Positions 7,816-52,890 of a stretch of 64,000 bases of DNA are shown piece by piece. The stretch covers positions 183,745-247,744 of the forward strand of contig CAZFTJ010000003.1 in assembly GCA_964521865.1 (NCBI GenBank), written 5' to 3'. The stretch is from an uncultured Spirochaetota bacterium (GTDB lineage: Bacteria > Spirochaetota > B62-G9 > DRHN01). The position numbers and the translations under genes were made by a program. The notes under the pieces are model-generated. The model was not told where the DNA came from. It saw nothing but the letters and a program-made list of their open reading frames with translations, and did not search any database. The stretch's first letter is position 1. Every line of letters begins with the position of its first letter.

Positions 7816-8874
7816 TCAGCATATACGGGGAAGCTGGTTTCCCACCGGCATGGTAATAATTCTGCTCGTACCGTAGGGTGTTTTCATGGTGAGACGTCCC
7901 GCCCCCTCATGGATCTCACCGATTTTCACGCTGCCTCTTCCCTCTTCAACGCTTCTCATCGCCTCAAGACATATCCGTGCCTTGCTTCCCGGCACAATTA
8001 CGATCATCTTTCCTTCGTTCGCCATCTGCAGCGGATCGAGACCGAGAATATCACAGAGACCCTGCACATCCTCATCGACCGGCAGTGCCTCCTCATCGAG
8101 TGCTATGGCGCATTCTGCACTTTCTGCAAGCTCGCAGAGAACCGCTGCGACTCCTCCCCTCGTCGGGTCGCGCGCACATTTGACCTCCGGCACAGCTTCG
8201 ATCACGGCCTGCATGAGATCGGAGAGAGGAGCACAGTCCGATCGTATGTCCGCCCCAAGTGAAAGATCGTTTCGTACGCTCAATATCGACGCCTCATGGT
8301 TGCCGATCGCCCCGCTTATTATAACTGCATCTCCTTCCGCTATCCGTGACGGTGAAAGCTCGACACCGGGCCGTACAACTCCCACTCCTGCGGTCGATAT
8401 GTATATGCCGTCGCCCCTGCCCTTTTCGACAACCTTCGTATCACCCGTTATGAGAGGGACGGGCACGCTGTCTGCGGTCTTTTTTATCGATACAAGCACC
8501 CTTTCGAGATCCCGGACCGGAAAACCCTCCTCGATGATCAGCCCGACGGACAGGGCGACCGGCAAAGCGCCTACAGCGGCGAGGTCGTTCACTGTTCCGC
8601 ATACGGAGAGCCTGCCGATATCTCCACCCGGAAAAAAGAGCGGAGTCACGACGAAGCTGTCGGTCGTCATAACCATTCTCGGCTGTTCTTCTGCAGTGGA
8701 ACCTCTCGAAATTCTTTCCACGGTCCTTCCGGCCCCTGCCGGGATATCGATACGTGAAGCATCCTCCATCCGATCCAGGGCCGGGTTGTCGAATGTGGAG
8801 ACGATGCCCTCGACGAGGCTTCTTGCCATACGGCCGCCGCCCCCATGTGTAAGCAGAATTCTCTCTACGCTCAT
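7816..8874 (-). CDS. hypE: [NiFe]-hydrogenase maturation protein HypE
   Basis: Ends in the characteristic C-terminal PRIC; AIR-synthase-like fold. Start placed at the ATG (MSVERILLTHGGGG) that follows GGAGGAGG; the longer track ORF begins at a non-ATG codon. Confidence 0.9.
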   Translation of the reverse strand: MSVERILLTHGGGGRMARSLVEGIVSTFDNPALDRMEDASRIDIPAGAGRTVERISRGSTAEEQPRMVMTTDSFVVTPLFFPGGDIGRLSVCGTVNDLAAVGALPVALSVGLIIEEGFPVRDLERVLVSIKKTADSVPVPLITGDTKVVEKGRGDGIYISTAGVGVVRPGVELSPSRIAEGDAVIISGAIGNHEASILSVRNDLSLGADIRSDCAPLSDLMQAVIEAVPEVKCARDPTRGGVAAVLCELAESAECAIALDEEALPVDEDVQGLCDILGLDPLQMANEGKMIVIVPGSKARICLEAMRSVEEGRGSVKIGEIHEGAGRLTMKTPYGTSRIITMPVGNQLPRIC

Positions 8875-9018
8875 ACCCCTCCTCCATTCTCCCGAAATTT
8901 GATGTTTAAATATTCTAATGTGGCTGTGAAAAAAAGAGAGCGGCAGCATGCCTTACGCATGATTTTAGGAGGCTTTTCCCGGATTATGAGGCGAACCCCG
9001 GGGATACGCACTGCCCGT

Positions 9019-10104
9019 TTAATCGCTTCGTCCGTATTTGTAGTATGCGGCACAGGACCCCTCCGAAGAAACCATACACGGCCCGACGGGATTCTCGGAC
9101 GTGCACCTTTTACCGAACAGTGCGCATTCCGGCGGAATTATTACTCCCCTGAGCACATCCGAGCATCTGCACCCCTTCGGATCGGGGCTTTCGACAAGAC
9201 GCAGCCCGAAATGCGCCAGCGCCTCGAGGTGGGTAAACTCTTCACGAAGTCTGAGACCGCTTTTCGGTATTTTCCCGATGCCGCGCCATTCGGCGTCTGT
9301 CGGTTCGAATACCCGATCCATCACATCGAGAGCGCGCACGTTTCCCTTCTCGGAGACCGCCCTTTTGTAGGTATTGGCGACGCCCGCCTCTCCCCTTGAC
9401 ACCCGACGTACGATTTCAAAGACAGCCGTCAGAATATCTACAGGCTCAAACCCGCCGACAACGCACGGCACATGAAACCGGTCGGCAATCGGTCTGTACG
9501 CGTCCCAGCCGATAATAACGCTCACATGACCGGGACATAAAAACCCGTCTATCCGTGTGTCATCACTGAGACACAGCGCCTCGAGCGCCGGTATTACCAG
9601 GCGGTTTGCGGCTATAAAGAACAGATTTTTTATACCTCGCTTTTCAGCTTCCAGAATGGATAGTGCGATCCCGGGAGTAGTAGTCTCAAATCCGACACTG
9701 ACAAACACGAACTCCCTGTCCTTTTCGGACGAAGCCATGTCCAGCAGTTCGTACGTCGAGTAGACGACGCGAACATCGGCACCCTCGGCCTTTATCTGTT
9801 CGAGGCTTCTCCCCGAGCCGGGAACACGCATCATATCTCCGAATGTCGCAACAGCAACATTCGAAAGCGCGGCCAGATCGAGCGCTGCATTTATAATCGA
9901 CGAGGGTGTAACGCAGACCGGACACCCCGGTCCTGAAATAAGCAAAAGCCCGTCCGGAAAAAGACCTCTGAGACCGTAGCGGGCGATCGCCATCGTATGG
10001 GTGCCGCAGACCTCCATGATCCTGACCGTGCCGCCCGGATAGATATCGCGTATCTTGCGCTCCAGCGTCTTTACGAGCTCCCTGTCCCTGTACGGTTCGT
10101 TCAC
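9019..10104 (-). CDS. hypD: [NiFe]-hydrogenase maturation protein HypD
   Basis: 361 aa with the HypD motifs CGTH and GPGCPVC. GTG start overlaps the hypC stop (GTGA), suggesting translational coupling. Confidence 0.92.
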   Translation of the reverse strand: MNEPYRDRELVKTLERKIRDIYPGGTVRIMEVCGTHTMAIARYGLRGLFPDGLLLISGPGCPVCVTPSSIINAALDLAALSNVAVATFGDMMRVPGSGRSLEQIKAEGADVRVVYSTYELLDMASSEKDREFVFVSVGFETTTPGIALSILEAEKRGIKNLFFIAANRLVIPALEALCLSDDTRIDGFLCPGHVSVIIGWDAYRPIADRFHVPCVVGGFEPVDILTAVFEIVRRVSRGEAGVANTYKRAVSEKGNVRALDVMDRVFEPTDAEWRGIGKIPKSGLRLREEFTHLEALAHFGLRLVESPDPKGCRCSDVLRGVIIPPECALFGKRCTSENPVGPCMVSSEGSCAAYYKYGRSD

Positions 10105-10328
10105 CGGCCTTCCTCCGGACGAAGCAGTTCCTCGAGCAGAGCGCGCGTTTCGAGCGCCTCCTGCTCATCGACGATCTGTATGGCGAATCCGGCATGGAGC
10201 AGAACATAATCTCCCACTTTTGCTTCCGGAACCAGATGAAAACCGGTATTGACTTTGATCCCGCTCATATCCACAACACCGGTCAATCCCTCTTTGCGTA
10301 TTATCTTTCCCGTTACTGCAAGACACAT
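10101..10328 (-). CDS. hypC: [NiFe]-hydrogenase maturation chaperone HypC
   Basis: 75 aa beginning MCLA (the conserved Cys2 N-terminus). Overlaps the hypF stop by 1 nt and the hypD start by 4 nt. Confidence 0.88.
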   Translation of the reverse strand: MCLAVTGKIIRKEGLTGVVDMSGIKVNTGFHLVPEAKVGDYVLLHAGFAIQIVDEQEALETRALLEELLRPEEGR

Positions 10329-12634
10329 TATCCCCTACCCCTTCCGCATCGTGCACGAGCGACGATACCCTGTCCGAATGCAATACCGCCGTCGTTCGGC
10401 GGCAGTAATCTGTGAATGAGCACTGAAAACCCGTTTTCCGACAGCATGCGCCGTAATGACTTCAGAACCGTACGGTTCTGAAACACTCCGCCGCTCAGCG
10501 CTACGGTGCCGATGCCTGTTTTTTCCCGAAGGCGCCGGCATACATCGACACCAGATAATATAACAGCGGCATGAAACTTTTGTGATATTAAAATGGGAGA
10601 AAGTTGGGCCCGTATGTCGTCGACGATCCCCCTGATTGCCGGCTCAAAATGTACATTCATCTCCGCATCCATATAATAGGAGTATGCGTCCTCACGTGAT
10701 ACGGGTAGAGATTCAGAAGCCCCTCCGGCCTTTTCAAGAAGCACTGCCCCCTGCGCATCGTATGACGGTCTGGAACAGAGTAAAATCATCGCTGACACCG
10801 CATCAAACAGCCTTCCACAGGACGACGTGGTCGGGCAGTTGACCCCCGAGCGTATCATCTTCTCCAGCAGGAAAAGCCTGCTTTTGTCGTACCTTTCAAT
10901 AAACGGAAAATCCGGGATATTCGATACAGAACCGAAGGCCTGAAGCAGGTACGATACCGCCATGCGGTCGGTTTCAGTAATCGCCTTTTCCCCGCCCGGC
11001 ATGGGAACAGGGAAGTATCGTGCGGCCCTGCTGAAATCCGCCCGCGTTGCAATGAGAAACTCACCGCCCCATATCGTGTTATCCGTACCGAATCCCGTCC
11101 CATCGAGTGCTATACCGATCACGGCAGCATTAACACCTGCCTCGCCGAGCACACCTGCTATATGCGCATGATGGTGCTGAACGCGCTCAAGCGGTATGCC
11201 TCGATCCGAGGCCGCACTCTCCGCAAGACGGGTGCTGATATACTCGGGGTGCATGTCGCAGACGAGTATTTCAGGTTCCACCCGAAGCATGCTCAAAAAA
11301 TCCTGAATACCTGCTAAAAAGGCGTCGACACTCGTGGTGTTGTTGAGATCGCCTATATGGTGGCTGACATAGGCCATCCCCTCCCTGAAAACACAGAAGG
11401 TATTTTTCTCATTCGGGCCGAAAGCAAGCAAAGCCCTGTCAGGCGGGCCTGCCGGTATGGCTTTCGGCACATACCCGCGGGACCTCCGCACCGGCACGGG
11501 AACCTCATCGCTCACGAAAAATACAGAATCGTCGCAGGGGCGCTGTATCTCCCTGTTGTGAACGAGAAAAGCATCCGCAATGCCGTCAAGCTCCTTAAAT
11601 GCCTCTGCATCCCGGTAAACGAGCGGTTCCTCGGATATATTCGCACTCGTCATTATAAGTATTTCAGGCCCTTTCCTCAGAAGAATATGATGCAGGGGTG
11701 TGTAGGGCAGCATAATACCGACGTAGTCCGTATCTGGTGCAATCTCTTCGGGCAGGTTGTTTTTTCTTCCCCTGAGCAGGACTATTGGCCGTTCAAAACC
11801 CCCTAGCAGGGCCTCTTCCCGCTCCCCGACGACGCAGTACTTTTTTACCGTACGCATATCCCGGGCCATCAGCGCAAAGGGTTTGGCGGGCCTTCGCTTC
11901 TTCTTCCGAAGGCGTACCACCCATTCCGATTTTGCAGGTGAAACCGCCATATGGTATCCGCCGAGACCTTTGACCGCAATGATGCGCCCCTGTCTTAACA
12001 TCGAAACTGCAGCGCCTATCGGATCGCCTTCCACAACCGACCCCGCAGCTGTTTTCAGTACAAGGCCCGGTCCGCATACAGGACATGCATTCGGCTGTGC
12101 GTGATACCGACGGTCGAGGGGATTCTCGTATTCGGCCGTACAGTCGTGGCACATCGTGAAATTACTCATCGTCGTATTTTTTCTGTCGTACGGAATAGAC
12201 CGTACGATCGTGAAACGAGGTCCGCAGTCCGTACAGTTGGTAAAGGGGTAGAAATACCTTCTGTTTTTCGGATCGAATATCTCCTCGAGGCAGCTGTCGC
12301 AGGTAGCAATGTCCGGAGAGATCGGAGTAAAACCCCCTCCTTCCACGGCGCTCCCGACTATATTGAGGCTCCTGAATCCGTGCGGTTTTTTATACTCGAT
12401 AGAGCTTTCGTGTATGTGAGCACGTACAGGGGGATTTTTCAAAACGTCTCTGTAGAATTGTTCGATATTTCGTTTTGAACCGTCAAGCTCGATGCACACG
12501 CCTGTTTCTGTGTTTCTGATTATCCCCCTGAGACGGTAGTAACGGGCTTTTCTATACGTAAGCGGCCGAAATCCCACCCCCTGTACGATGCCCTTATACC
12601 AGATAACGGCACCGGTTGTCCCGGTATTTTCCAT
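10328..12634 (-). CDS. hypF: Carbamoyltransferase HypF
   Basis: 768 aa. N-terminal acylphosphatase-like region, two CxxC-x18-CxxC zinc-finger pairs (CDSC...CTDCGPR; CHDC...CPVCGP), then YrdC-like and Kae1-like regions. Confidence 0.92.
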   Translation of the reverse strand: MENTGTTGAVIWYKGIVQGVGFRPLTYRKARYYRLRGIIRNTETGVCIELDGSKRNIEQFYRDVLKNPPVRAHIHESSIEYKKPHGFRSLNIVGSAVEGGGFTPISPDIATCDSCLEEIFDPKNRRYFYPFTNCTDCGPRFTIVRSIPYDRKNTTMSNFTMCHDCTAEYENPLDRRYHAQPNACPVCGPGLVLKTAAGSVVEGDPIGAAVSMLRQGRIIAVKGLGGYHMAVSPAKSEWVVRLRKKKRRPAKPFALMARDMRTVKKYCVVGEREEALLGGFERPIVLLRGRKNNLPEEIAPDTDYVGIMLPYTPLHHILLRKGPEILIMTSANISEEPLVYRDAEAFKELDGIADAFLVHNREIQRPCDDSVFFVSDEVPVPVRRSRGYVPKAIPAGPPDRALLAFGPNEKNTFCVFREGMAYVSHHIGDLNNTTSVDAFLAGIQDFLSMLRVEPEILVCDMHPEYISTRLAESAASDRGIPLERVQHHHAHIAGVLGEAGVNAAVIGIALDGTGFGTDNTIWGGEFLIATRADFSRAARYFPVPMPGGEKAITETDRMAVSYLLQAFGSVSNIPDFPFIERYDKSRLFLLEKMIRSGVNCPTTSSCGRLFDAVSAMILLCSRPSYDAQGAVLLEKAGGASESLPVSREDAYSYYMDAEMNVHFEPAIRGIVDDIRAQLSPILISQKFHAAVILSGVDVCRRLREKTGIGTVALSGGVFQNRTVLKSLRRMLSENGFSVLIHRLLPPNDGGIAFGQGIVARARCGRGRG

Positions 12635-12637
12635 ACG

Positions 12638-13279
12638 TTACAGCCTGTCGATGATCCATCCAAGGAGTTTGTCGAAGCCCTCTCCGGTTGCTGAGGAAAC
12701 CGGGATACTGGCGGATGAAGGGTTGACTTTGTGGAGCCTCTTTTCGAAGTTTTCGAGCCTGAAATCGGTGTTCGACTGCATATCTATTTTATTCACTACA
12801 ACGAGGTCTGCGGTTCTGTACATCGTAGGATATTTCTCCGGCTTATCGTCTCCCTCAGTGATGCTCGCGACGATTATTCTTCCGCTCTCACCAAGATCGA
12901 AGCCCGACGGGCAGACCAGGTTTCCGACATTCTCGATAAACAGCAGCGCAATATTGTCGAGCTCGATCGTATCGAGAGCCGATCTCACCATGGCTGCATC
13001 CAGATGGCACGCCCCGTTTGTATTGATCTGCGCGGACTGCACACCTGTTTTCGAGATTCTCTCGGCGTCATGCGAGGTGGCAAGGTCGCCTTCGATCACG
13101 GCGGCCTTCATCCGGGGGGGCAGCATCGGGACAAGCCGTTCAAGCATTGCGGTCTTTCCTGCACCGGGCGACCCCATGACATTCCAGCATGTGATCTTCC
13201 TGTTATGCAACATATTCCTGATATCCCGCGCAAGAAGATCGTTTGCCTGCAGAATATCGCTCATGACATTTACCTTCAT
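12638..13279 (-). CDS. hypB: Hydrogenase nickel-incorporation GTPase HypB
   Basis: P-loop GSPGAGKT and a GTPase/metal-binding region (ENVGNLVCP). Start placed at the ATG (MKVNVMSD) preceded by AAAGGA; the track ORF extends to a TTG at 13360. No His-rich or CxxCGC N-terminal metal site. Confidence 0.82.
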   Translation of the reverse strand: MKVNVMSDILQANDLLARDIRNMLHNRKITCWNVMGSPGAGKTAMLERLVPMLPPRMKAAVIEGDLATSHDAERISKTGVQSAQINTNGACHLDAAMVRSALDTIELDNIALLFIENVGNLVCPSGFDLGESGRIIVASITEGDDKPEKYPTMYRTADLVVVNKIDMQSNTDFRLENFEKRLHKVNPSSASIPVSSATGEGFDKLLGWIIDRL

Positions 13280-13471
13280 GAATTCATCCTTTCTTGATGT
13301 AATGCCGCCGTCAGGCAGCTTGTTTTCCGCGATACATAAGCGGTGGTTATGTCTGCTCAACTGGATTTATTATACGGCTCGAAGAGACGCATAACAAATC
13401 AGGTGTTTACACCGGCGGTGTTATAATGAATACGACCATTGAAATATCCGGCGAACCGCGGATTGATCCCG

Positions 13472-13714
13472 TCAGTCGCCTTCGAACGAGAGAACCTGAA
13501 GCTCAGACCCCCCGGACTCCTCTATGCTGATGTGAGCCCCCTCGGAAATCGTGTCTTTGGAGAGCACATCGAATGCAAAGAGAAGCGCATCGGCTAACAC
13601 ACCGGAGTACTTTCCGATTTTCAGGTTGATTTTCGAAATCTTCTGCATGCCCTCCTCTTCAGCCCGCCGGTGTATCATCTTCAGCAGCTCTTCCGTAATT
13701 GAAAGCTCATGCAT
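13472..13714 (-). CDS. hypA: HypA-like nickel metallochaperone, short form lacking the zinc-finger region
   Basis: Starts MHELSI (HypA N-terminal Ni-site motif) and stays colinear with HypA for about 80 aa, then stops (…LQVLSFEGD). Contains no cysteine at all and no CxxC pairs. A GTG at 13738 is an alternative start. Confidence 0.6.
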   Translation of the reverse strand: MHELSITEELLKMIHRRAEEEGMQKISKINLKIGKYSGVLADALLFAFDVLSKDTISEGAHISIEESGGSELQVLSFEGD

Positions 13715-13800
13715 GAACTGTGCCCGTGGCTGCCCCACATGAAGGGTTTCCTGCCCCCCGCAACATGCGTTTATCGTTCTGAGGGCGAGGATTATCTTTT

Positions 13801-13821: not shown

Positions 13822-14483
13822 TGTGATATTCGGTCCCCGGGGACGTAGACCACTTCTAACTAATATCTACCAATTTTCCCTTGTTTTCAATATTTTATTA
13901 ATGCCGCCGGCTCGCGTACCTGGAGGTATCGACAAATCAAGTAGAGCGGATACAATCCCCGCGTGCATGCCGCTCGACAGCGGCATTGCCTGCCCTGAAT
14001 ATCTTCCCCGATGATTATCAACTTCCTAAAGGAAAATATGACTTGACATTTTCATAAAAGAACAATACTAATAAAAGGGTTTCGTATCTTTAAAAAAAAT
14101 AGTTAATTTTTTAACATAGTTCTGGCGCTATTTCGGCCGATGAAGCGACTGCTGTATATCACCCGCCGCTTTTTTCCGCGGCACTGAATTTAACAGCGGC
14201 GGGGGTTGAGGTCAAGTAAAACCAAGCCGGCAAATTCCTCATAGAAGAATAGGGCCGATACGTCGCTGTTGAGACCAGAATGTCAAACTGCTGAATGAGC
14301 ATACACCGGGGCGTATCAGCGGGATGCACCCATCCAATCAAAAAAAGTGAGCGCCATTCAATTAATGCGGGAGGTAATAATAGAGAACATGCTATATACG
14401 CAGTATAGGCGTAATTTCCCCGCTGCAAAATATTGTAAGATTCACCAATACATGTGACTGATTATTCAATCGGAGGTACAGTA

Positions 14484-16277
14484 ATGGCAAATGATCAAAG
14501 CAAAGCCGTCAAGGAAATAGTCGAGGAGTACTGCAGCGACCGTGGACACTTGATGGACATTGCACGAAAAGTGCAAAACCGATTCGGATACATATCCGAA
14601 GAAAACATGGAGCACATTGCGAGGGCGTTGGGTATTCATCTCGTTGAAGTGCGTGACATGGTCAGTTTTTATACCTTCTTTTCACGAGAACCGGCGGGTA
14701 AGAATGTAATCCGTCTCTGTAATGCCGTTGTTGAGAAAATGCACGGAGCAGACCTTGTCGCCGATGCCTTTGAAAAGGAAGTGGGCGTTCCGTTCGGCAG
14801 TACGAGCACGGACGGGTCGATTTCACTCGAGTACACGTCATGTATCGGAATGAGCGATCAGCCTCCGTCCGCCCTGATCAACGGCATCCCCGTTACGAAA
14901 ATCTGCCCGGAAGATGTACCGGGCATCGTCAAAGAGCTCAAAAGCGGTACGAAGTACAGTCCTGAAAAAGCGGAAACGGTTCTTGCCGCCACCCTGCTCG
15001 AGAGCAATCTCAATAAGACGGGTCAGGTGGTTTTTTCACCACAGGAACCGGGGAACGGGATCAGGGCTGCGCTGAACATGCCGCCGGAGGATGTCATCAA
15101 CAGTATCAACGAATCTCGACTGCGTGGGCGCGGCGGTGCAGGCTTTCCCACAGGAATGAAGTGGAATTTCTGCAGAAAATCGAAAGGTGAAAATCACTAC
15201 GTGATCTGCAATGCGGATGAAGGAGAACCCGGTACCTTCAAGGACAGAGTCATCCTGACCGAGGCAGCGGACCTTGTTTTTGAAGGCATGACCATTGCAG
15301 GATATGCTGTTGGGGCATCGCAGGGCTTCATGTACCTGAGAGGAGAATTTCAGTACCTTCTCAGCTCCCTGGAGCAGGTGCTCAGCCGGCGAAGGCACAT
15401 CGGCCTCCTCGGAAAAAACATTGCCGGGAAGCAGGGATTCGACTTCGATATACGGATCCAGGTCGGTGCAGGAGCCTATATATGCGGAGAAGAATCCGCA
15501 CTCATCGAATCGCTCGAAGGAAAACGGGGCGCTCCGCGCGATAGACCGCCGTTCCCGGTGACCCGCGGGTACATGAACCAGCCGAGCTCCGTCAACAATG
15601 TCGAAACATTCTGCTGTTCAGCCCGTATCATGGAAAAGGGCGCAGAGTGGTTTTCCAGGCTCGGCACCAAAGATTCGACCGGTACAAAATGCCTGAGCGT
15701 ATCCGGCGACTGTGCGCACCCCGGGGTGTACGAGGTCGAATATGGAATTACGATCGACAATCTGCTGGATCTTGTGGGCGCGAAAGAAGCCCAGGCTGTG
15801 CAGGTGGGCGGACCGTCCGGAAGGTGCGTCGCACCGAAAGATTTCGGGCGAAGCATCAGCTTTGAAGACCTTCCTACCGGCGGCTCCGTGATCGTTTTCG
15901 GCAAGGAGCGGGACCTTCTCGAGATCGTCAGACAATTCACCGAATTCTTTGTAGAGGAGTCATGCGGCTGGTGCGCACCGTGCAGGGTTGGAACGACTCT
16001 CCTTTTACAGAAGCTTGAAAGGGTGATTGAGGGTAAAGGTTCACGGCTGGACCTCGAGGAGCTCGAGAGTCTCGGCAATACGGTGGAGAAGATGAGCCGC
16101 TGCGGTCTCGGCCAGACTGCTGCAAACCCCATTCTGACGACATTGAAGAATTTTCATTCGCTGTACACGGCAAAAGCAACATCCGGTGAGTTTATTCCAC
16201 CGTTCGACTATGAAAAAGCGCTTGCGGCGGGAATCCAGATTGCAGGGAGAGAACCTGTGGTGGAAGAGGAGGAATGA
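14484..16277 (+). CDS. hoxF: NAD(P)-linked hydrogenase diaphorase subunit HoxF (NuoE-like plus NuoF-like domains)
   Basis: FMN/NADH-binding NuoF-type motifs (GRGGAGFPTGMKW, CNADEGEPGTFKDR) and a 4Fe-4S motif (ESCGWCAPCR); about 150-aa NuoE-like N-terminus. Start at ATG 14484 preceded by GGAGG; the track ORF starts 30 nt earlier. Confidence 0.85.
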   Translation: MANDQSKAVKEIVEEYCSDRGHLMDIARKVQNRFGYISEENMEHIARALGIHLVEVRDMVSFYTFFSREPAGKNVIRLCNAVVEKMHGADLVADAFEKEVGVPFGSTSTDGSISLEYTSCIGMSDQPPSALINGIPVTKICPEDVPGIVKELKSGTKYSPEKAETVLAATLLESNLNKTGQVVFSPQEPGNGIRAALNMPPEDVINSINESRLRGRGGAGFPTGMKWNFCRKSKGENHYVICNADEGEPGTFKDRVILTEAADLVFEGMTIAGYAVGASQGFMYLRGEFQYLLSSLEQVLSRRRHIGLLGKNIAGKQGFDFDIRIQVGAGAYICGEESALIESLEGKRGAPRDRPPFPVTRGYMNQPSSVNNVETFCCSARIMEKGAEWFSRLGTKDSTGTKCLSVSGDCAHPGVYEVEYGITIDNLLDLVGAKEAQAVQVGGPSGRCVAPKDFGRSISFEDLPTGGSVIVFGKERDLLEIVRQFTEFFVEESCGWCAPCRVGTTLLLQKLERVIEGKGSRLDLEELESLGNTVEKMSRCGLGQTAANPILTTLKNFHSLYTAKATSGEFIPPFDYEKALAAGIQIAGREPVVEEEE

Positions 16278-16987
16278 TGAAAGAACAAAAGATCACAATA
16301 ATCATCGACGGTAAAGAAATCGAGGCGGTTTTCGGCCAGTCTATCATGCAGGCGGCCGATGCAGCGGGAATCTATATCCCGCGCCTCTGCTATCACAAAG
16401 ACCTGATTCCGGCCGGACACTGTCGGGTATGCACGGTAAAAGTCAATGGAAAACCGACAAATGCCTGTTCAATGCCTGCTGCAGACGGCATGGTCATTGA
16501 AAATGAAACTCCCGAATTGAACGAGGAGCGTCGGCATATAATAGAGATGCTCTTTGTGGAAGGGAATCACTTCTGCCCGTTCTGCGAAAAGAGCGGAGAC
16601 TGCGAACTGCAGGCGCTTGCGTATCGATTGGGCATGCTCACCCCGAGATACACGTATCAGTACAAGCATGTCGAAGTCGATGCAACACATCCGGATGTCT
16701 ACATCGATCGTGAGCGCTGTGTTCTCTGCGGCAGATGCGTGCGGGCATCGCGTGATATCGACGGGAAGGACGTGTTCGGATTTGTCGGACGCGGTATAAA
16801 CAAGCGAATTGCCGTGAATTCAAAGGGTGACCGATTATCCGATACAGAGCTTGCGGCAGCCGACAAAGCGGCTTCAATCTGCCCGACCGGCTGTATCGTC
16901 ATCAAACGTGTCGGCTATGCCAAGCCGTTCGGCACACGGTTGTATGACACGCAACCCATCGGCTCGGATATTCAGAAGACTCCGTAA
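16274..16987 (+). CDS. hoxU: Hydrogenase diaphorase iron-sulfur subunit HoxU (NuoG N-terminal-like)
   Basis: 237 aa with a 2Fe-2S ferredoxin-type N-terminus (CYHKDL...GHCRVC...C) and 4Fe-4S cysteine clusters (CPFCEKSGDC; CVLCGRC). Start overlaps the hoxF stop. Confidence 0.85.
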   Translation: MMKEQKITIIIDGKEIEAVFGQSIMQAADAAGIYIPRLCYHKDLIPAGHCRVCTVKVNGKPTNACSMPAADGMVIENETPELNEERRHIIEMLFVEGNHFCPFCEKSGDCELQALAYRLGMLTPRYTYQYKHVEVDATHPDVYIDRERCVLCGRCVRASRDIDGKDVFGFVGRGINKRIAVNSKGDRLSDTELAAADKAASICPTGCIVIKRVGYAKPFGTRLYDTQPIGSDIQKTP

Positions 16988-17013
16988 AAAATCTTAATTC
17001 TGAGGAAGGAAAA

Positions 17014-17553
17014 ATGGCCAAACCAAAAGTAGCGACAACACATATGACGGGGTGCTTTGGCTGTCACATGTCTCTCCTCGATATCGATGAAAAGATACTC
17101 GATCTGATTGAGCTTGTGGATTTCGACAAATCACCCATAGACGATATAAAGCAGTTTACGGGCACTGTTGATATCGGCCTGATCGAGGGAGGATGCTCCA
17201 CTCAGGAAAATGTTGAAGTGCTTCGTTCTTTTCGCAAGCACTGCAAAATTCTTATAGCAGTCGGAGAATGCGCCAATACCGGAGGTGTTCCACACCTGCG
17301 CAACATGATTCCCCTCAAAGAGTGCATGGAGGAAGCGTATCTCAACGGTCCGTCCGTCGTCGACGGCGTCATACCGAACGATCCCGATATTCCGCTCATT
17401 CTGGACAAGGTCTATCCCGTCCACGAAGTGGTAAAGATCGACTACTGGCTGCCGGGCTGTCCTCCCAGAGCGGAAACTTTCTGGGCCGCATTAACGGCTC
17501 TGCTTAAAGGCGAAGAACCGAAGCTGCCGTACGAGCTCATCAAATACGATTAA
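17014..17553 (+). CDS. hoxY: [NiFe]-hydrogenase small subunit HoxY
   Basis: 179 aa with the proximal-cluster cysteine pattern (GCFGC...GEC...GCPP); position between hoxU and hoxH. Confidence 0.85.
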   Translation: MAKPKVATTHMTGCFGCHMSLLDIDEKILDLIELVDFDKSPIDDIKQFTGTVDIGLIEGGCSTQENVEVLRSFRKHCKILIAVGECANTGGVPHLRNMIPLKECMEEAYLNGPSVVDGVIPNDPDIPLILDKVYPVHEVVKIDYWLPGCPPRAETFWAALTALLKGEEPKLPYELIKYD

Positions 17554-17573
17554 TTTCATGGAGGCGTTTAAAT

Positions 17574-19016
17574 ATGGCTTCTGAGACAAAAGCACGAAAG
17601 ATCGTCATCAATCCGGTGACACGGATTGAAGGACATGCCAAGGTAACAATAAGGCTTGATGAAAACGGGAAAGTCGACAGGGCGAGGATGCATATTGTGG
17701 AGTTTCGCGGTTTTGAACGCTTTGTGCGCGGTCGTCTTTATTGGGAAGCACCGGTCATCGTACAGCGTCTGTGCGGGATATGTCCGGTCAGCCACCTGCT
17801 CTGCGCATCGAAGGCAATGGATGTCATCGTCGGAGCGGATAGACTGACACCGACCGCTGAGAAGATGAGGAGGCTTTTGCACATGGGGCAGGTGTACCAG
17901 TCCCATTCACTGCATTTCTTCCACCTCAGCGCACCCGATCTGCTCCTCGGGTACGATGCAGACCCTGTAATCAGGAACGTCATCGGACTTGCAAAGAAGA
18001 ACACAGATCTCGCCGTGCAGGCGGTTATGATGCGGAAGTACGGCCAGGAAGTGATCAAAGCAACCGCAGGCAAGAAGATACACGGCAACGGATCGATTCC
18101 CGGCGGCATGAATAAGAACCTGTCGATCGAAGAACGGGATGCCCTGCTCGAGGATGTCGACCGGATGATCGACTGGGCACAGGGTGGTCTTGATCTATAC
18201 AAGAAACTTTACCGCGACGACACCGCTCGTCTGAGCAAGCTCGGCTCATTTGAGTCGAATTTTGTCAGTATCGTCCGGGAGGATGGAGCGCTCGACATGT
18301 ATGACGGCAAGCTCAGGGCGAAAGATCCTGACGGCAACCTGATTTTCGATATGGTCGAGCCGAAAGACTATTTAAAGTACATACGGGAAGGGGTGAGAAA
18401 CTGGAGCTACATGAAATTCCCGTTCATTTACTCGCTCGGTCAGGAGAAGGGCTGGTACCGCGTCGGTCCGCTCGCACGGCTGAACAACTGCGATTTCATC
18501 ACGACCCCGAAGGCCGAGAAGGAGCGTCGGGAGTTTATGGAGCTCGGAGGCGGCAGGCCTGTCCATTCAACCATGGCCTATCACTGGGCACGGCTGATTG
18601 AAACCCTGTATGCGGCTGAAAGAATAAAGGAGCTTCTGAACGATCCGGACCTGCAGGGAGATGATCTCGTCGTGAGCGGCGAAAGGAGAAACGAGGGAAT
18701 AGCCATCATCGAGGCGCCGAGGGGCACCCTGTTCCATCACTATCGGGTGGATGACACGGATCAGATCACCATGGCGAATCTCATCGTTTCGACCACGAGC
18801 AACAATCAGCCGATGAATGAGGCGGTGCGCGTCGTTGCAGAGGATCATATTGCCGGTAGAGAGGTTACGGAACCGCTGTTGAACCTCGTTGAGGTTGCGA
18901 TACGGGCCTATGACCCCTGCCTGAGCTGTGCCACCCATGCAATCGGTCGGATGCCTCTTATCGTGACCCTGGAAGACGAAGGCGGCGCCGTGATCGATAG
19001 AAAAGTGCGGGATTGA
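17574..19016 (+). CDS. hoxH: [NiFe]-hydrogenase large subunit HoxH
   Basis: N-terminal RLCGICPVSH (RxCGxCxxxH) and C-terminal DPCLSCATHA (DPCxxCxxH) Ni-Fe ligand motifs; a 25-residue tail follows the His, as expected for a protease-processed precursor. Confidence 0.92.
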   Translation: MASETKARKIVINPVTRIEGHAKVTIRLDENGKVDRARMHIVEFRGFERFVRGRLYWEAPVIVQRLCGICPVSHLLCASKAMDVIVGADRLTPTAEKMRRLLHMGQVYQSHSLHFFHLSAPDLLLGYDADPVIRNVIGLAKKNTDLAVQAVMMRKYGQEVIKATAGKKIHGNGSIPGGMNKNLSIEERDALLEDVDRMIDWAQGGLDLYKKLYRDDTARLSKLGSFESNFVSIVREDGALDMYDGKLRAKDPDGNLIFDMVEPKDYLKYIREGVRNWSYMKFPFIYSLGQEKGWYRVGPLARLNNCDFITTPKAEKERREFMELGGGRPVHSTMAYHWARLIETLYAAERIKELLNDPDLQGDDLVVSGERRNEGIAIIEAPRGTLFHHYRVDDTDQITMANLIVSTTSNNQPMNEAVRVVAEDHIAGREVTEPLLNLVEVAIRAYDPCLSCATHAIGRMPLIVTLEDEGGAVIDRKVRD

Positions 19017-21945: not shown

Positions 21946-21972
21946 GATAACCGTACTGTGCATAATCTATTC

Positions 21973-22003
21973 GCCGGCAAAGGGGACGCTGTCCTTTTGC
22001 CGG
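21973..22003 (+). terminator. Imperfect stem-loop between the binding-protein and permease genes (possible intra-operon attenuator)
   Basis: GCCGGCAAAGGGGAC-gct-GTCCTTTTGCCGG, about 12 bp stem with one bulge. No T-run directly after it, but a T8 run lies at about 22055. Confidence 0.3.
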
Positions 22004-22128
22004 TGAAATTATGAATGAGAGGCCTCATCCGAAGATAAAAAATGTGTCCGGGAGGGCACTTTTTTTTATTAAAAGTATTGATGAGAGACAGCTTTAAAAA
22101 ATGGACTGAATAAGACTGGTGTCGATAC

Positions 22129-23133: not shown

Positions 23134-23143
23134 ACCCAACGCC

Positions 23144-24025: not shown

Positions 24026-24033
24026 AACAGATC

Positions 24034-24996: not shown

Positions 24997-25009
24997 GGGG
25001 ACCGTCGGA

Positions 25010-25972
25010 TTGGAAAAATTGATTGAAGTAAAAAATCTGAAAAAATGGTTTTGGACGGGGAAAAAAGGACCGATGGGAAAAGAGGCTGTGAGGGCCGTCG
25101 ATGACGTCAGCTTCTCTATAGAAAGACGGGAAGTTCTCGGGCTCGTCGGCGAATCGGGCTGCGGGAAGACAACGTGCGGGAAAGTAATCCTGAAAATATT
25201 GGAACCGACCGACGGCAGCATTTTTTTTAACGGAAGAGAAATAACTCATTTGAAAAAAAGGGAGATGATGCCGATCAGGCGCAGGATGATGGTCATTTAT
25301 CAAGACCCCTTTGGCTCTCTCGATCCGAGAATGACGATCAAATCGACAATAGCCGAGCCAATGGCAGTACATAATTGTGTGCCGAAAAAAAAGCGGGAAG
25401 AAAAGGTAATAGAAATTATGGAAAAGGTCGGGCTCACACCCGATCAGAGGTTTCGATATCCCCATGAGTTCAGCGGGGGCCAGAGACAGCGAATCGGAAT
25501 TGCACGGGCTCTGGCAATAAACCCGGATTTTATTGTTGCAGATGAATCGGTCTCGGCCCTGGACGTTTCTATTCAGGCTCAGATCATAAATTTATTGCAC
25601 GATCTGCAGGAGGAATTCGGGATAACCCTTCTCTTTATAGCACACGATTTGAGTGTCATAAAACACATAAGCGACCGCATTGCTGTTATGTACCTGGGCA
25701 CGATCGTTGAAAAGGCTTCCAAAAAAGTCATCTTTGACGACCCGAAACACCCGTATACCAGAGCGCTCCTTTCGGCAATACCCGTCCCCAACCCGAGGCT
25801 CAAAAAAAAGGGTGAAATTTTAACGGGCGATGTTCCAAGCCCGGTCAACCCCCCTTCGGGATGCAGGTTTCATCCGAGATGCCCGTACAAGATGGATATA
25901 TGCGACAAAAAAGTACCGGAGTTGAAGGAAATAACTCCGAATCAGTTTGTGGCGTGTTTCCTGTATGCCTGA
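25010..25972 (+). CDS. ABC transporter ATP-binding protein (DppF/NikE-like)
   Basis: Walker [10 protein letters not shown], signature FSGGQRQR, Walker [13 protein letters not shown]-loop IAHD. Confidence 0.9.
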
Positions 25973-33012: not shown

Positions 33013-35490
33013 TTATTCCCGCGCCGTTTGAAAAGGCCACATCTTGAGCCCGCCTTCAAGTATTCGAATATTCGTGAACCCCTGTGCCTTGAGAATAAGC
33101 GACGCCTGATAGGACCTGCTTCCAGTCTCGTCGATCAGTATAATACCACGGTCGCGGGGTATCTCATCTATTCTTCTCCTCAGGCTTTCGAGGGGAATGA
33201 GCTCGACTCCCGGAATTCGCTCCTCCTCGAATTCACGCGGAAGCCGCACGTCGATACAGGTGCAGGTCTTTTTTGCCTCTATAACTTCCCGTGCATCCAT
33301 TGCCATGATTCCCTCAAACACACCGTCGAGCTTATTCTGCATGACATGTGCTGCGACAATAATACTGTCGATGGCCCTGGAGTATGAAGGCGCATACCCG
33401 AGATCGAGAGATGCAATATCGTCTATTATACCGTCATTGGCGATAACGGTCGACGCAACGTCAATCCTCTTGGCCACATCACCTTTGCCGACTATCTGAA
33501 CCCCGAGCAGCTTCCTCGTTTTTTTATCACCAATCATCTTGACGTGTATCATCTGCGATTCAGGGATAAACTCATCCCTGTCGAAATCGGGAACATATAC
33601 CGTCACCGGATGGAATCCCGCTTTACTGGCCTCTTGCTCGTTCAACCCCGTCTTCGCGATATGGAATTCAAAAACCCTGATAATGATTGTACCGGTAACG
33701 GCGGGGAAAATCGCTTTCTTTCCCGCCGCATTCGTACCGGCCACCCTCCCCTGCTTGTTTGCAATCGAACCGAGAGGAATATAACAGGGTTTTTTAGATA
33801 CTGCATGAACCACCTCACAGCAGTCACCGGCTGCATAGATGGATGCATCGCTTGTCTGCAACCGCTCGTTAACGGCAATCGCACCCGTGGAGCCGATTTT
33901 CAGCCCGGCCTTTTTCGCAAGCGTAACACTCGGTACAAATCCTGTTGCAATAATAACGAGATCAGCCGGAAGGCGGAACCCGTCAAGCTGGACCGATTCA
34001 ACACCTTCTGTTCCAATAAATTCCTGGACTTCGGTATTCGTTATAATTCGTACACCGTTGAGCTCCAGATGGTTGCGCACGAGGGCTCCCATTTCACGGT
34101 CGAGAAAGGGCAGAATCTCATGATCTTTCTCAACAATTGTTACACGCGCTCCGGATGCGGTCAGCGCTTCTGCGGTTTCAATGCCAATATTACCGCCTCC
34201 AAGCACAACGATATCCTTTGCAAGATTGTTGGTAAGGAAACGTTTTATTCTTTCGGAATCGGTTACACCGTGCAGCACGAAGATATTCTGCAATCCAATA
34301 CCCCTGATATCGGGAAGAGACGGTCTGCTTCCAGTCGAGATAATAAGAATGTCGTAGGGTTCGGTAAAGACCCGTTCTGTGAGAATATCGCGGTAGTGTA
34401 TTACCTTCTCTTCCCTGTCTATCTTTATCACTTCAGAGAGGTTCTTTATCTCTATACCCTTCACACTCCTGAAAAACTCCGTCGCATTCTCAAATCCAGA
34501 GTAGAACCCGAACAGCTCACGCTGCTGCTTCAGCTTTCCGGCGATATAGTACGGAAGTGCACATCCCGCATATGCAAGAAAATGGTCCTTTTCAAAAACG
34601 GTGATCTTTGCCTCCGGGTCGAGCCTCCGCGCACGTGAAGCCGCTTTCGGCCCCGCGGCGACGCCGCCTATGACAACGATTCGCTTTTTAAACCGTTTTT
34701 TCGATTCATCGACCTTTTCCGTTTCTGCAACACGAACCAGCGGAAGCGTAAAGATGAACGCAGTTCCTTCGTTCAGCCTGCTCTCAACCCGTATCGAGCC
34801 GCCGCATATCTCTATGATCTTTTTAACGATTGTAAGGCCGAACCCGGTCCCTTTTTTGTCGAAGAGACGTGCATTTTCGGCTCTAAAAAATTCTTCGAAA
34901 ATTTTATCGCTCACTTCAGCGGGTATGCCGATACCGTTGTCTTCAACGCGTGTAACGATTTCACCCGTATCTTCGCTGTACTGTACAGTAAGTATGACGT
35001 GACCTTCGCGGGATGTATACTTTAGGGCATTCTCAAGGAGATTGTACACGGTATGTTTCAGTCCGACTCTGTTCCCCAGAACGATCAGGAGCTTGTTGGG
35101 AATATCACTGACAAAATGAATGCTCTTTTCCCTGATTTTTTCTCTCAACTCGTCCACCGCTTCGATACAAATTTCGGAAAAATCCACCTCCAGGAGCTCG
35201 ACCTCGCCGCTTCGAAAGCGTTCGAGCTCCAGGATGTCCATGATAAGATCCTGCAGGTCCCTGCTCCCTCTCTTTATCGACTCCACAACACGAAGCTGTT
35301 TGTTGTTCAGCTTTCCTGCATACTCGCCGAGCAGGGTTTCTACACTGAAAATTATGGTCGCAATGGGAGATTTCAACTGATGAGCGCTGATCCTGAGATA
35401 CTCCCTGCGGTCCCGAAGAAGCCGTTCGACCTCCTCCCTGTACCGCTGGACCTGCTTTTCAAGATCGTTTATTTTTTCTTCAGCAGACAT
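33013..35490 (-). CDS. Histidine kinase core (HisKA + HATPase_c) fused to a CoA-disulfide-reductase/NADH-oxidase-like flavoprotein and a C-terminal rhodanese-like domain
   Basis: 825 aa. Residues 1-245: coiled coil, H-box (SAHQLKSPIATI), N/G boxes (NLLENALKYT, DNGIGIP, GTGFGL). Residues 250-700: FAD/NAD Rossmann motifs (IVVIGGVAAGPKAASRARR; VVLGGGNIGIETAEAL) with the redox cysteine in AGCALPYY. Residues 730-825: rhodanese fold whose catalytic-Cys position reads Asp (ILIDETGSRS). No transmembrane segment. Confidence 0.75.
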   Translation of the reverse strand: MSAEEKINDLEKQVQRYREEVERLLRDRREYLRISAHQLKSPIATIIFSVETLLGEYAGKLNNKQLRVVESIKRGSRDLQDLIMDILELERFRSGEVELLEVDFSEICIEAVDELREKIREKSIHFVSDIPNKLLIVLGNRVGLKHTVYNLLENALKYTSREGHVILTVQYSEDTGEIVTRVEDNGIGIPAEVSDKIFEEFFRAENARLFDKKGTGFGLTIVKKIIEICGGSIRVESRLNEGTAFIFTLPLVRVAETEKVDESKKRFKKRIVVIGGVAAGPKAASRARRLDPEAKITVFEKDHFLAYAGCALPYYIAGKLKQQRELFGFYSGFENATEFFRSVKGIEIKNLSEVIKIDREEKVIHYRDILTERVFTEPYDILIISTGSRPSLPDIRGIGLQNIFVLHGVTDSERIKRFLTNNLAKDIVVLGGGNIGIETAEALTASGARVTIVEKDHEILPFLDREMGALVRNHLELNGVRIITNTEVQEFIGTEGVESVQLDGFRLPADLVIIATGFVPSVTLAKKAGLKIGSTGAIAVNERLQTSDASIYAAGDCCEVVHAVSKKPCYIPLGSIANKQGRVAGTNAAGKKAIFPAVTGTIIIRVFEFHIAKTGLNEQEASKAGFHPVTVYVPDFDRDEFIPESQMIHVKMIGDKKTRKLLGVQIVGKGDVAKRIDVASTVIANDGIIDDIASLDLGYAPSYSRAIDSIIVAAHVMQNKLDGVFEGIMAMDAREVIEAKKTCTCIDVRLPREFEEERIPGVELIPLESLRRRIDEIPRDRGIILIDETGSRSYQASLILKAQGFTNIRILEGGLKMWPFQTARE

Positions 35491-35602: not shown

Positions 35603-36013
35603 TCAGTCGAGGTCGAACGAAAAAAAGGAGGGAAGCGCCATGTGCACTCCCTTCTGCCCGCCTATTCTGTTCGTCAGGTCCCGCAATACCTTCTCTTCCC
35701 CCCGCACCACTATAACTTCCATGCAGTAATCATGCGTTATATGAACATGATTGGCAAAGTGTATAGACTGCTGATAGTGATGCTGAATTTCCGTGAGAGC
35801 CTCTGAAAGATTGTGCATATGATGATTATAAATTATGGTAATCGAGCCCATTACCTGCCCCGTTTTTTCGCTCTTTTCAAGAGATAGCTTTTCCCTTATG
35901 AGATCCCGAATAGCCTCACTGCGGTTGTGAAAACCGTGCGCAGCAATGAAGTCATCAAAGGATGAAAGCAGGTTTTTTTCCATGGATACACCAAACCGAA
36001 TAAGCTCAGACAT
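35603..36013 (-). CDS. nikR: Nickel-responsive transcriptional regulator NikR
   Basis: 136 aa. N-terminal ribbon-helix-helix (FHNRSEAIRDLIRE) and C-terminal metal-binding domain with the NikR His/Cys pattern (HHMH...HVHITHDYC). Confidence 0.82.
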   Translation of the reverse strand: MSELIRFGVSMEKNLLSSFDDFIAAHGFHNRSEAIRDLIREKLSLEKSEKTGQVMGSITIIYNHHMHNLSEALTEIQHHYQQSIHFANHVHITHDYCMEVIVVRGEEKVLRDLTNRIGGQKGVHMALPSFFSFDLD

Positions 36014-52855: not shown

Positions 52856-52890
52856 AAGGAAGATTAAAACTCTTTAATTTTAATGGGGAG
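52856..52890. repeat. Palindrome-containing 33-nt element, copy 1 (overlaps the 3' end of the histidine kinase gene)
   Basis: AAGGAAGATTAAAACTCTTTAATTTTAATGGGG; about 30 of 33 identical to 56461-56493, with weaker similarity extending to 52811. Contains inverted 7-mers ATTAAAA/TTTTAAT. Confidence 0.6.

Follow-up and report, generated by a model that had tools for sequence, protein, structure and literature searches.

The subject of this analysis is a gene on the minus strand of a 64,000-nucleotide stretch of DNA from an uncultured Spirochaetota bacterium (the window, by which we mean that entire stretch). Its 825-residue product joins a two-component transmitter, a flavoprotein of the coenzyme A-disulfide reductase (CoADR) type and a rhodanese-like domain in a single chain (Table 1). 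The gene lies downstream of nikR, and the window also carries a set of hyp maturation genes and, divergent from them, an operon for an NAD-linked [NiFe] hydrogenase that stops 4 nt before a gene in which a HoxW-type maturation endopeptidase is fused to a receiver (REC) domain. An earlier note, made from the DNA letters alone, had described the 825-residue protein as an orphan histidine kinase with the flavoenzyme positioned as its input domain. The observation of a flavoenzyme-fused transmitter is confirmed, and the interpretation that accompanied it is partly supported.

Five Pfam domains of the protein score above their curated gathering cut-offs, namely HisKA at residues 28–95 (2.8e-10), HATPase_c at 140–252 (6.1e-28), Pyr_redox_2 at 270–560, Pyr_redox_dim at 606–707 (2.3e-13) and Rhodanese at 738–818 (2.5e-13). 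An AlphaFold2 (AF2) model built from 31 homologues (predicted local distance difference test, pLDDT, 85.5) arranges the chain as a helical hairpin for dimerization and histidine phosphotransfer (DHp), a catalytic and ATP-binding (CA) domain, a disordered stretch at residues 258–266, and the flavoprotein with its rhodanese domain. In the AF2 monomer models the domains are confident but the geometry between them is unreliable (predicted template-modelling scores of 0.65 and 0.55), and no mechanistic contacts have been taken from them. The DHp helix begins at residue 3 of the model with no domain ahead of it, and the first 270 residues hold no hydrophobic segment (maximum Kyte-Doolittle value over 19 residues, 1.13), which bears out the earlier description of a core devoid of transmembrane or classical sensor domains. 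The same note had raised the possibility of a chimeric assembly artefact. We reject this explanation because base composition is uniform over the gene and the architecture recurs in more than 110 clusters from many independent assemblies.

The C-terminal 555 residues align end to end with solved enzymes of the CoADR-rhodanese (CoADR-RHD) and NADH-dependent persulfide reductase (Npsr) families. The closest solved relative is the NAD-dependent persulfide reductase of A. fulgidus (6pfz; E 1.8e-130 over residues 270–818), and the CoADR-RHD enzyme of B. anthracis (3icr) matches the C-terminal part at E 2.6e-99. Foldseek superimposes the model on 6pfz, rhodanese domain included, with a target template-modelling (TM) score of 0.95, a root-mean-square deviation of 1.9 Å and 42% identity. 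With Cys310, two GxGxxG motifs, a Pyr_redox_dim domain and the fold (TM 0.92–0.95), the protein has the features of the single-Cys class that comprises CoADR, NADH oxidase (Nox) and NADH peroxidase (Npx), and it also matches NADH oxidases and peroxidases. Its scores for two equivalog families are below their cut-offs: 423.6 bits against 578.8 for CoA-disulfide reductase (TIGR03385), and 372.9 against 458 for NF007123. Cys310, in the motif AGCALPYY, aligns on the redox Cys of 6pfz and 3icr. A rhodanese domain follows the flavoprotein as in Npsr (residues 738–818, aligned through 818), and Asp787, in ILIDETGSRS, falls on the catalytic Cys of both enzymes. Domain annotation, structural matching and the sequence alignments (codons checked) agree with the earlier note on the type of the central flavoprotein, on its redox Cys and Rossmann motifs, and on the Asp in the rhodanese domain.

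Table 1. Features of the fusion gene and of the nickel and hydrogenase genes in the window
Feature	Position	Strand	Basis
Transmitter–flavoprotein–rhodanese fusion gene, 825 aa	33013..35490	-	Open reading frame (ORF), Pfam, >110 full-length homologues, AF2 model
DHp/HisKA helical hairpin, aa 1–95	35206..35490	-	HisKA 28–95; model helices 3–54, 63–93
His37 codon; codon of non-canonical Gln38 (H+1)	35380..35382; 35377..35379	-	In DHp
CA (HATPase_c) ATP-binding domain, aa 100–256	34723..35193	-	N154, G1 and G2 boxes invariant
Flexible linker between CA and flavoprotein, aa 257–269	34684..34722	-	pLDDT <50 for residues 258–266
CoADR/Npsr-type FAD/NADH flavoprotein, aa 270–720	33331..34683	-	Pyr_redox_2, Pyr_redox_dim, 6pfz match
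Redox Cys310 codon; codon of Glu454 (NADH-type acidic residue)	34561..34563; 34129..34131	-	In flavoprotein
Rhodanese-like domain, aa 730–820	33031..33303	-	Pfam Rhodanese 2.5e-13; alignment to 6pfz, 3icr
Asp787 codon, at rhodanese catalytic-Cys position	33130..33132	-	Codon checked
nikR	35603..36013	-	NF003381, 131 bits against cut-off 105; 112-nt gap to fusion gene
hypE, hypD, hypC, hypF, hypB, hypA	7816..13798	-	phmmer against L001 hyp genes, E 1e-21 to 1e-289
hoxEF (fused), hoxU, hoxY, hoxH: NAD-linked group-3-type [NiFe] hydrogenase operon	14454..19016	+	Pfam, NCBIfam
HoxW-type maturation endopeptidase (aa 7–142) and receiver (aa 162–273), 280 aa	19021..19863	+	TIGR00072, Response_reg

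Conserved and decayed residues in the fusion family

A search of 5.8 billion proteins recovered more than 110 clusters of about 795–845 residues with the same domain set, 54–90% identical to the query in Spirochaetota and ~40–44% identical in Planctomycetota, Phycisphaerae and Sedimentisphaerales. Scanning a single genome for each species added Verrucomicrobiota, Victivallales/Lentisphaerota, Myxococcota and others among the matches listed, all of which were metagenome-assembled genomes (MAGs), the best being 59% identical. The hosts are MAGs from anoxic sediments and bioreactors. Source annotations name these proteins merely as 'FAD-dependent oxidoreductase' or similar, or as 'response regulator', and full-text literature searches found no paper on this fusion or on the HoxW-REC fusion. 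The family is a real, conserved and undescribed variant of the two-component sensor. In a neighbour-joining (NJ) tree of the flavoprotein region, fused and stand-alone forms interleave in the part occupied by the PVC superphylum (Planctomycetota, Verrucomicrobiota and relatives), with 13 state changes, a pattern compatible with one or several gains of the kinase module.

The transmitter retains several hallmarks of a HisKA protein. Its core resembles that of HK853 (E 2e-30), and the phospho-acceptor His37, which aligns with His260 of HK853, is invariant in 110 of 110 full-length members. The same holds for N154 (the second Asn of the N box), D184/G186/G188 and G214/G216/G218 in the nucleotide-binding boxes of the CA domain. 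The departure concerns the residue that follows the phospho-acceptor (H+1). This is Gln38 in the query, opposite Glu261 of HK853, and it is Gln in all 110 full-length members and in 47/47 fusion ORFs of the loci that we fetched, whereas the other HisKA kinases of the same loci carry Glu or Asp in 19 of 19 cases. The nearest non-fused relative of the transmitter module (L106, THELKAP) likewise has an acidic H+1. The fusion protein also lacks the N-terminal sensor and/or transmembrane segments of HisKA autokinases. Position H+4 is mostly Ser, and the first Asn of the N box (Asn150, retained here) is present in 73/73 members of the spirochaete clade and replaced by Ala in 33 of the 37 members of the PVC clade.

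HisKA kinases strictly conserve an acidic residue at H+1, which serves as the general base in autophosphorylation (PMC8292422, PMC7005713). The Agp1 variant D529H is inactive, the bacteriophytochrome DrBphP, which naturally lacks an acidic H+1, is a light-gated, ATP-dependent phosphatase, and the first N-box Asn is less conserved in proteins without an acidic H+1 (PMC8292422). Because an invariant Gln replaces the Glu/Asp general base, the transmitter may be a phosphatase-biased enzyme or a slow kinase. The 'kinase core' of the earlier note is thus non-canonical at the position where HisKA autophosphorylation requires an acidic residue.

The flavoenzyme core is well preserved. Cys310 and both Rossmann motifs are invariant in the 110 full-length members, and the redox Cys is kept in 198/198 sequences when fusions and stand-alone enzymes are pooled. 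Glu454 is Glu in 109 of the 110 members and Asp in the remaining one, and it is invariant in the 31-sequence alignment. An acidic residue of this kind specifies NADH in Rossmann folds, which agrees with the strict NADH specificity of the A. fulgidus enzyme, AfNpsr (PMC7969121). Judged by these residues, the flavoenzyme would be catalytically intact, with FAD, a redox-active Cys310 and probably bound CoA.

The rhodanese site has fared differently. At its catalytic position the 110 members have Cys (69), Ser (24), Asp (15) or Gly (2), and Asp is restricted to the query's own sub-lineage. Stand-alone CoADR-RHD enzymes keep the Cys in 44/44 cases (locus-derived and protein sets pooled), whereas Ser, Asp or Gly replaces it in 54 of 152 fusions (36%), the other 64% keeping it. 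On a rough NJ tree this loss takes ~16 parsimony changes, all of them within fusions. The rhodanese Cys of Npsr has been called the 'initial sulfur-accepting site' (PMC7969121). Because the Cys was lost repeatedly while the core stayed invariant, sulfur relay through it would be dispensable and the NADH/FAD/Cys core needed, and the pattern is that expected of an enzyme recruited as a sensor. The Asp that the earlier note singled out is thus a symptom of relaxed constraint in one lineage and not a designed feature. As a separate observation, a second Cys, in the FAD-binding GDC motif (codon 557, 33820–33822), is invariant in 110/110 fusions and is also found in 6pfz.

Hydrogenase neighbourhoods and candidate receiver partners

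The fusion is part of a set of nickel and [NiFe]-hydrogenase genes (hyp, hoxEFUYH, hoxW-REC, nikR) that is conserved across phyla. The window and a relative with 89% identity (L004) supplied the locus context. As the earlier note had reported, nikR precedes the gene on the same strand. This linkage persists in spirochaete relatives: nikR is immediately upstream of the fusion in L001, L004 and L170. It also lies in the same cluster in L026. In L001 (63% identical) the locus comprises CYTH, nikR, the fusion and hypABFCDE, and in L170 (60%) it comprises nikR, the fusion after a 26-nt gap, a convergent REC gene 2 nt off and hypABFCDE. More distant hosts have related arrangements. A Victivallales locus (L026) has nikR-hoxEF-U-Y-H-hoxW-REC convergent on the fusion, together with NicO and Rex; in a metagenomic locus (L102) the fusion lies between hoxEFUYH-hoxW-REC, 58 nt away, and Rex; and in a verrucomicrobial locus (L030) the fusion stands amid hypD, hypE, hypA and hypB. 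Rex genes flank the fusion in L019, L026, L070 and L102. Of these, L070 (a Sedimentisphaerales MAG, 8545–13414, plus strand) is a tight operon of rex, a GAF-domain kinase, a single-domain REC and a Gln-type fusion, and it resembles an arrangement of kinase, REC and dedicated phosphatase under NADH control.

Hydrogenase, nickel or Mrp-type genes lie within 10 kb in 16 of 42 fusion loci compared with 1 of 45 loci of stand-alone CoADR-RHD genes (Fisher 1.8e-5, a statistic that ignores shared ancestry). When only hydrogenase genes, hyp and nikR are counted, the figures are 10/42 and 0/45. The neighbours of the stand-alone genes are instead metallo-beta-lactamase (MBL)-fold, NifX-like, DUF134, Mrp/NBP35 and peroxiredoxin genes. 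The association between fusion and hydrogenase occurs in at least four phyla. The protein is still best read with the flavoenzyme as its input domain, and what had been overlooked is this biological context.

One spirochaete context type has the fusion directly after an eight-gene Mrp/Mbh-like module (L006, L007, L009, L010, L168 and L169). In L006 (60% identical) a convergent REC gene, a group-3b-like hydrogenase and hypFCD complete the locus, and L168 (55%) has a convergent 280-residue HoxW-REC gene 136 nt off, hoxH-Y-U-EF and hypABFC. A HydB-like Fer4_22 gene lies upstream on the opposite strand in L006, L007, L168 and L169, whose flanks are long enough; a HydG-like gene accompanies it in L007, L168 and L169, and L168 and L169 also have NuoB/H/I-like genes. 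The combination of an Mrp-type module with Nuo-like genes suggests a respiratory complex related to group-4 hydrogenases. Two loci, L008 and L010, come from the same MAG (Spirochaetes HyVt-370) and carry paralogous fusion genes that are 59% and 56% identical to the query, and the nikR-type and Mrp-type contexts may represent paralogues with different partners.

In L102 an additional gene (15042–17506, plus strand) encodes a 676-residue fusion of an [FeFe]-hydrogenase H-cluster domain with HisKA-HATPase_c and is followed by a REC gene. The contig holds this H-domain kinase alongside hoxEFUYH-hoxW-REC, two Rex genes and the flavoprotein fusion. Because loci of this type also contain an H-domain transmitter next to a REC, the joining of a redox enzyme module to a transmitter within hydrogenase clusters is a recurring design.

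The HoxW-REC protein of the window matches TIGR00072 (50.2 bits against a cut-off of 47.45) and Response_reg (4.3e-19), has the Asp/Asp/His metal ligands of the endopeptidases and adjoins hoxH. HoxH terminates in DPCLSCATH followed by a 25-residue extension, which is cleavable and so calls for a maturation endopeptidase. At least 120 full-length clusters (53–100% identity) make up the HoxW-REC family, including representatives from Hydrogenedentota and Nitrospiraceae, and a metagenome scan with the same protein gave at least about 17 true HoxW/REC loci, mostly short. Protease ligands D18/D19, D63 and H88 are invariant in the family, as are D166–168, D210, S239 and K262 of the receiver active site, and the receiver signature is unusually conserved (DLMME.VD.G ... 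GD.VRYN.D ... GIFQKP). Since hoxW and REC are separate adjoining genes in L026, and apparently also in L094 and L096–L103 as separate overlapping ORFs, the gene in the window represents a fusion of two neighbouring genes.

The earlier note had called the transmitter an orphan. Locally this is correct, in that no receiver gene adjoins the fusion gene in the window, the downstream neighbour being a convergent ABC ATPase gene that ends at 32999. However, a small REC gene abuts the fusion in ten related loci (L168, L026, L102, L155, L006, L170, L015, L022, L058 and L070), at a distance of 2–175 nt in the last seven, and the window carries a REC of the same subfamily. Receivers that accompany fusions either have no output domain or are fused to HoxW, and they are of two types. 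The REC domain of the window scores 209 (L168), 117 (L102), 103 (L026) and 88 bits (L155) against the type-1 receivers that abut fusions, and 104 bits against the L017 receiver, which closes a hydrogenase operon 6 kb away from the fusion, compared with 45–60 bits for generic receivers and 49 for the OmpR-type regulator of the window. A second type (DVMM...) abuts the fusion in L006, L015, L022, L058, L070 and L170. The 64-kb window has only two receiver domains, that of HoxW-REC and that of the OmpR-type regulator. We reject the latter (54222–54896) as a partner, as it is paired with its own HAMP kinase (52864–54222). Because receivers of its subfamily abut fusions and the only other receiver in the window already has a kinase, HoxW-REC is, on sequence grounds, the best candidate in the window for the receiver on which the fusion protein acts.

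A candidate redox input to hydrogenase maturation and its rivals

We favour, at slightly better than even odds (a probability of roughly 0.55), the reading that this protein is a soluble transmitter whose input is the fused NADH-dependent flavoenzyme of the CoADR/persulfide-reductase type, and that it sets the phosphorylation of a hydrogenase-associated receiver. NADH would reduce the centre formed by the flavin and Cys310, and a disulfide, a persulfide or O2 would re-oxidise it. Depending on its redox or ligand state, which would reflect NADH supply versus oxidant, the dimeric flavoenzyme would then restrict or free the CA domain by way of the ~12-residue tether, gating the access of CA or REC to the DHp hairpin and thereby setting the phosphorylation state of a dedicated REC. 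Given Gln38, the main activity of the transmitter would probably be nucleotide-dependent dephosphorylation, with REC phosphorylation supplied by another kinase, as in L070, or by acetyl phosphate. The receiver here would most likely be HoxW-REC, and the output would act on hydrogenase maturation or activity after translation rather than on transcription. The phosphorylation state of the receiver could modulate HoxW or the hydrogenase, such that the capacity of an NADH-linked H2 valve is fitted to the redox load. NikR would link expression of the sensor to nickel status through putative co-transcription, and the rhodanese domain in the query's lineage would be a non-catalytic structural remnant.

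The signal is proposed to centre on NADH because Glu454 is near-invariant, AfNpsr is NADH-specific, Rex genes flank several fusions and the neighbouring enzymes are NAD(P)-linked. What we observe is the architecture, the conserved residues, the gene neighbourhoods and the kinship among REC subfamilies; from these we infer what the signal is, which way regulation runs, which receiver is the partner in this genome and how HoxW is affected. A more explicit version, in which an NADH/thiol-redox-gated phosphatase (or slow kinase) acts on a receiver located on or beside HoxW, HoxW proteolysis, the last proteolytic step of [NiFe]-hydrogenase maturation, is under phospho-control and NikR feeds in nickel status, is offered tentatively, as less likely than not.

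Several points weigh against the favoured reading. Beyond the matter of shared ancestry in the enrichment statistics, 26/42 fusion loci have no hydrogenase-related gene within 10 kb. The intact ATP-binding boxes fit a kinase or an ATP-dependent phosphatase alike, and slow autophosphorylation might still be possible with Gln at H+1. HoxW-REC lies 13 kb from the fusion gene, on the other strand, and L170, which shares the nikR-type context of the window, has an adjacent receiver of type 2. No type-2 receiver is visible in the 64-kb window, and one elsewhere in the genome is possible. Several fusion loci have no REC nearby (L003, L169), and type-1 receivers can adjoin a canonical kinase too (L103). 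We know of no established signalling mechanism for a sensor that is placed C-terminal to the CA domain on a flexible linker, and a monomer model cannot show how such a sensor is coupled to CA. Finally, the signal may be NADH/NAD+, sulfane sulfur or O2.

Four other explanations deserve consideration. If the protein were a classical sensor kinase with a flavoenzyme input, His37 would autophosphorylate according to the flavin/Cys redox state, the receiver would be phosphorylated and Gln38 would be tolerated. The invariance of His37, N154 and the G1 and G2 boxes, the likeness to HK853, the first N-box Asn of every spirochaete-clade member and the absence of a second kinase beside REC in most fusion loci speak for this explanation. 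Set against them are the absence of the H+1 base from all members where other HisKA kinases of the same loci have Glu or Asp, the finding that changes at H+1 abolish kinase activity (PMC8292422, PMC7005713), the loss of the first N-box Asn from most of the PVC clade and the separate canonical GAF kinase in the L070 operon, so that we consider a classical kinase possible but doubtful. It is unlikely, although an analogy exists, that the protein is a sensor of sulfane sulfur (persulfide, polysulfide or elemental sulfur, S0) in which the Npsr-like module would switch H2 metabolism versus sulfur reduction. The S0 response of the Thermococcales involves SurR, NSR/CoADR and Mbh/Mbs. Relatives of the gene stand beside group-3b-like, sulfhydrogenase-type operons, HydB/HydG-like genes and Mrp/Mbh-like modules, most of the family retains the rhodanese Cys, and the nearest characterised enzymes are persulfide/polysulfide reductases (PMC7969121). 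However, that Cys is replaced in over a third of fusions, including the query, and never in stand-alone enzymes, the hydrogenase is of the NAD-linked Hox type in the window, L026, L102 and L168, and Rex is co-localised in four loci.

A sensor of O2 or peroxide, in which Nox/Npx-like chemistry at Cys310 (sulfenic acid, NADH oxidase turnover) would halt maturation of an O2-sensitive hydrogenase, is less likely again. The matches to NADH oxidases and peroxidases, the substantial NADH oxidase activity of AfNpsr (PMC7969121) and the origin of the hosts in anoxic sediments and bioreactors, where O2 is a stress, are in keeping with it, but the best matches are to Npsr/CoADR-RHD rather than to Nox, and the rhodanese domain, superfluous for O2 sensing, is kept throughout the family. 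Least probable by far is that the gene has no functional link to hydrogenase, being either a working enzyme tethered to an unrelated signalling module or an assembly chimera. In favour of this, the flavoenzyme keeps every catalytic motif and most fusion loci have no hydrogenase genes nearby. Yet the same junction and length recur in the more than 110 clusters across several phyla, the H-box change is family-specific and strictly tied to the fusion, the rhodanese site is relaxed in fusions only, and the fusion repeatedly lies near REC, hox, hyp and nikR in different phyla; the chimera part of this explanation is essentially refuted already.

The proposed flavoenzyme-gated transmitter resembles several known systems without coinciding with any. 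Its C-terminal 555 residues share fold and domain order with Npsr/CoADR-RHD enzymes (6pfz; Shewanella Npsr, 3ntd; 3icr; E. faecalis CoAPR, 8a56), as well as the redox Cys, the FAD/NAD Rossmann motifs, the NADH-type acidic residue and the C-terminal rhodanese domain. Those enzymes are stand-alone proteins of ~550–570 residues with an essential rhodanese Cys and neighbours among sulfur or Fe-S genes, whereas the fusion has an N-terminal HisKA/HATPase module, an Asp at that position and a hydrogenase/nickel context. It shares with kinases of the HK853, EnvZ and WalK type the DHp hairpin with its phospho-acceptor His and the N, G1 and G2 boxes of the CA domain, but differs in having a sensor-like module C-terminal to CA, no N-terminal sensor or transmembrane segment, and Gln at H+1. 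The H2-sensing regulatory hydrogenase systems HoxBC-HoxJ-HoxA and HupUV-HupT-HupR are also dedicated two-component systems among hydrogenase and hyp genes that use a redox enzyme as the sensing element. In these, however, a separate group-2b hydrogenase acts on a PAS kinase with an NtrC-type output, while in the present family the flavoenzyme is fused, there is no PAS domain, the receivers have no DNA-binding domain, and the neighbouring hydrogenase has a HoxEFU diaphorase. Rex would respond to a likely common signal, the pyridine-nucleotide redox poise, for fermentative and hydrogenase genes, but it is a DNA-binding Rossmann protein that has no flavin, Cys chemistry or phospho-signalling. Known HoxW/HybD/HycI endopeptidases are single-domain proteins of ~150–160 residues; HoxW-REC is like them in its TIGR00072 match, its invariant metal ligands and its position directly after HoxH, and differs by its C-terminal receiver. 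The nearest precedent for a phosphatase that is gated by a signal and shows little if any kinase activity is DrBphP, which combines a HisKA-type module devoid of an acidic H+1 with a retained nucleotide-binding CA domain (PMC8292422). DrBphP has His at H+1, Glu at H+4 and an N-terminal phytochrome, compared with Gln, mostly Ser and a C-terminal flavoenzyme in the fusion.

Both the Npsr-type input and the HoxW-REC output are undescribed in the literature that we searched. Anaerobes fit their hydrogenase capacity to NADH supply by means that are known mainly as transcriptional systems (Rex, HoxJ/HoxA and formate hydrogenlyase regulators). If the favoured reading is true, an entire CoADR/Npsr-class enzyme now serves as the input of a signalling protein, a clear example of an enzyme converted to a sensor, with the evolutionary trace still visible as decay of the rhodanese Cys in the fused forms only. 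A receiver on a hydrogenase-specific endopeptidase would then add a new layer to the regulation of metalloenzyme maturation. Members of the family are common among uncultured Spirochaetota and the PVC superphylum, groups that drive H2 turnover in sediments and digesters. Their soluble HisKA module, which naturally has Gln at H+1, is also suited to the study of kinase/phosphatase balance, and NADH-responsive synthetic circuits could be developed from the family.

Other features of the window

The first gene of the hydrogenase operon (14454–16277, plus strand) encodes a 607-residue fusion of a HoxE-like part (2Fe-2S thioredoxin-like) and a HoxF-like part (Nuo51 FMN, NADH_4Fe-4S), and the same HoxE-HoxF fusion is found in L026, L155 and L168. 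Directly after hoxW-REC is a five-gene ABC transporter of the Dpp/Opp/Nik family (20209–25972, plus strand). It resembles NikABCDE, but all its NCBIfam scores are below cut-off, and its substrate may be nickel or a peptide. Beside the enolase gene, two ORFs of 736 and 518 residues (2345–4555 and 4671–6227, both on the minus strand) have no NCBIfam match at E 1e-10.

A scan of the nikR-to-fusion gap for promoters and terminators gave no convincing terminator and only a weak promoter-like site (35540–35511). A search for a NikR-operator-like motif common to four intergenic regions (upstream of nikR, nikR to fusion, hyp to hox, and hoxW-REC to the ABC transporter) gave nothing beyond chance 9-mers. 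Within the last 50 nt of the nikR coding sequence is a terminator-like hairpin with a T-run (35631–35651, minus strand) that scores no better than shuffled sequence and could attenuate read-through into the fusion gene.

The gap between nikR and the CYTH gene is occupied by a gene (36336–38678, plus strand) for a 780-residue protein whose N-terminus resembles a signal peptide and which has a Big_5 Ig-like domain. Its orthologue in L004 has weak or faint Pfam matches of the beta-helix/NosD type. This gene is present in L004 and absent from L001 and L170, which suggests that it was inserted into a conserved Trx-CYTH-nikR-fusion block.

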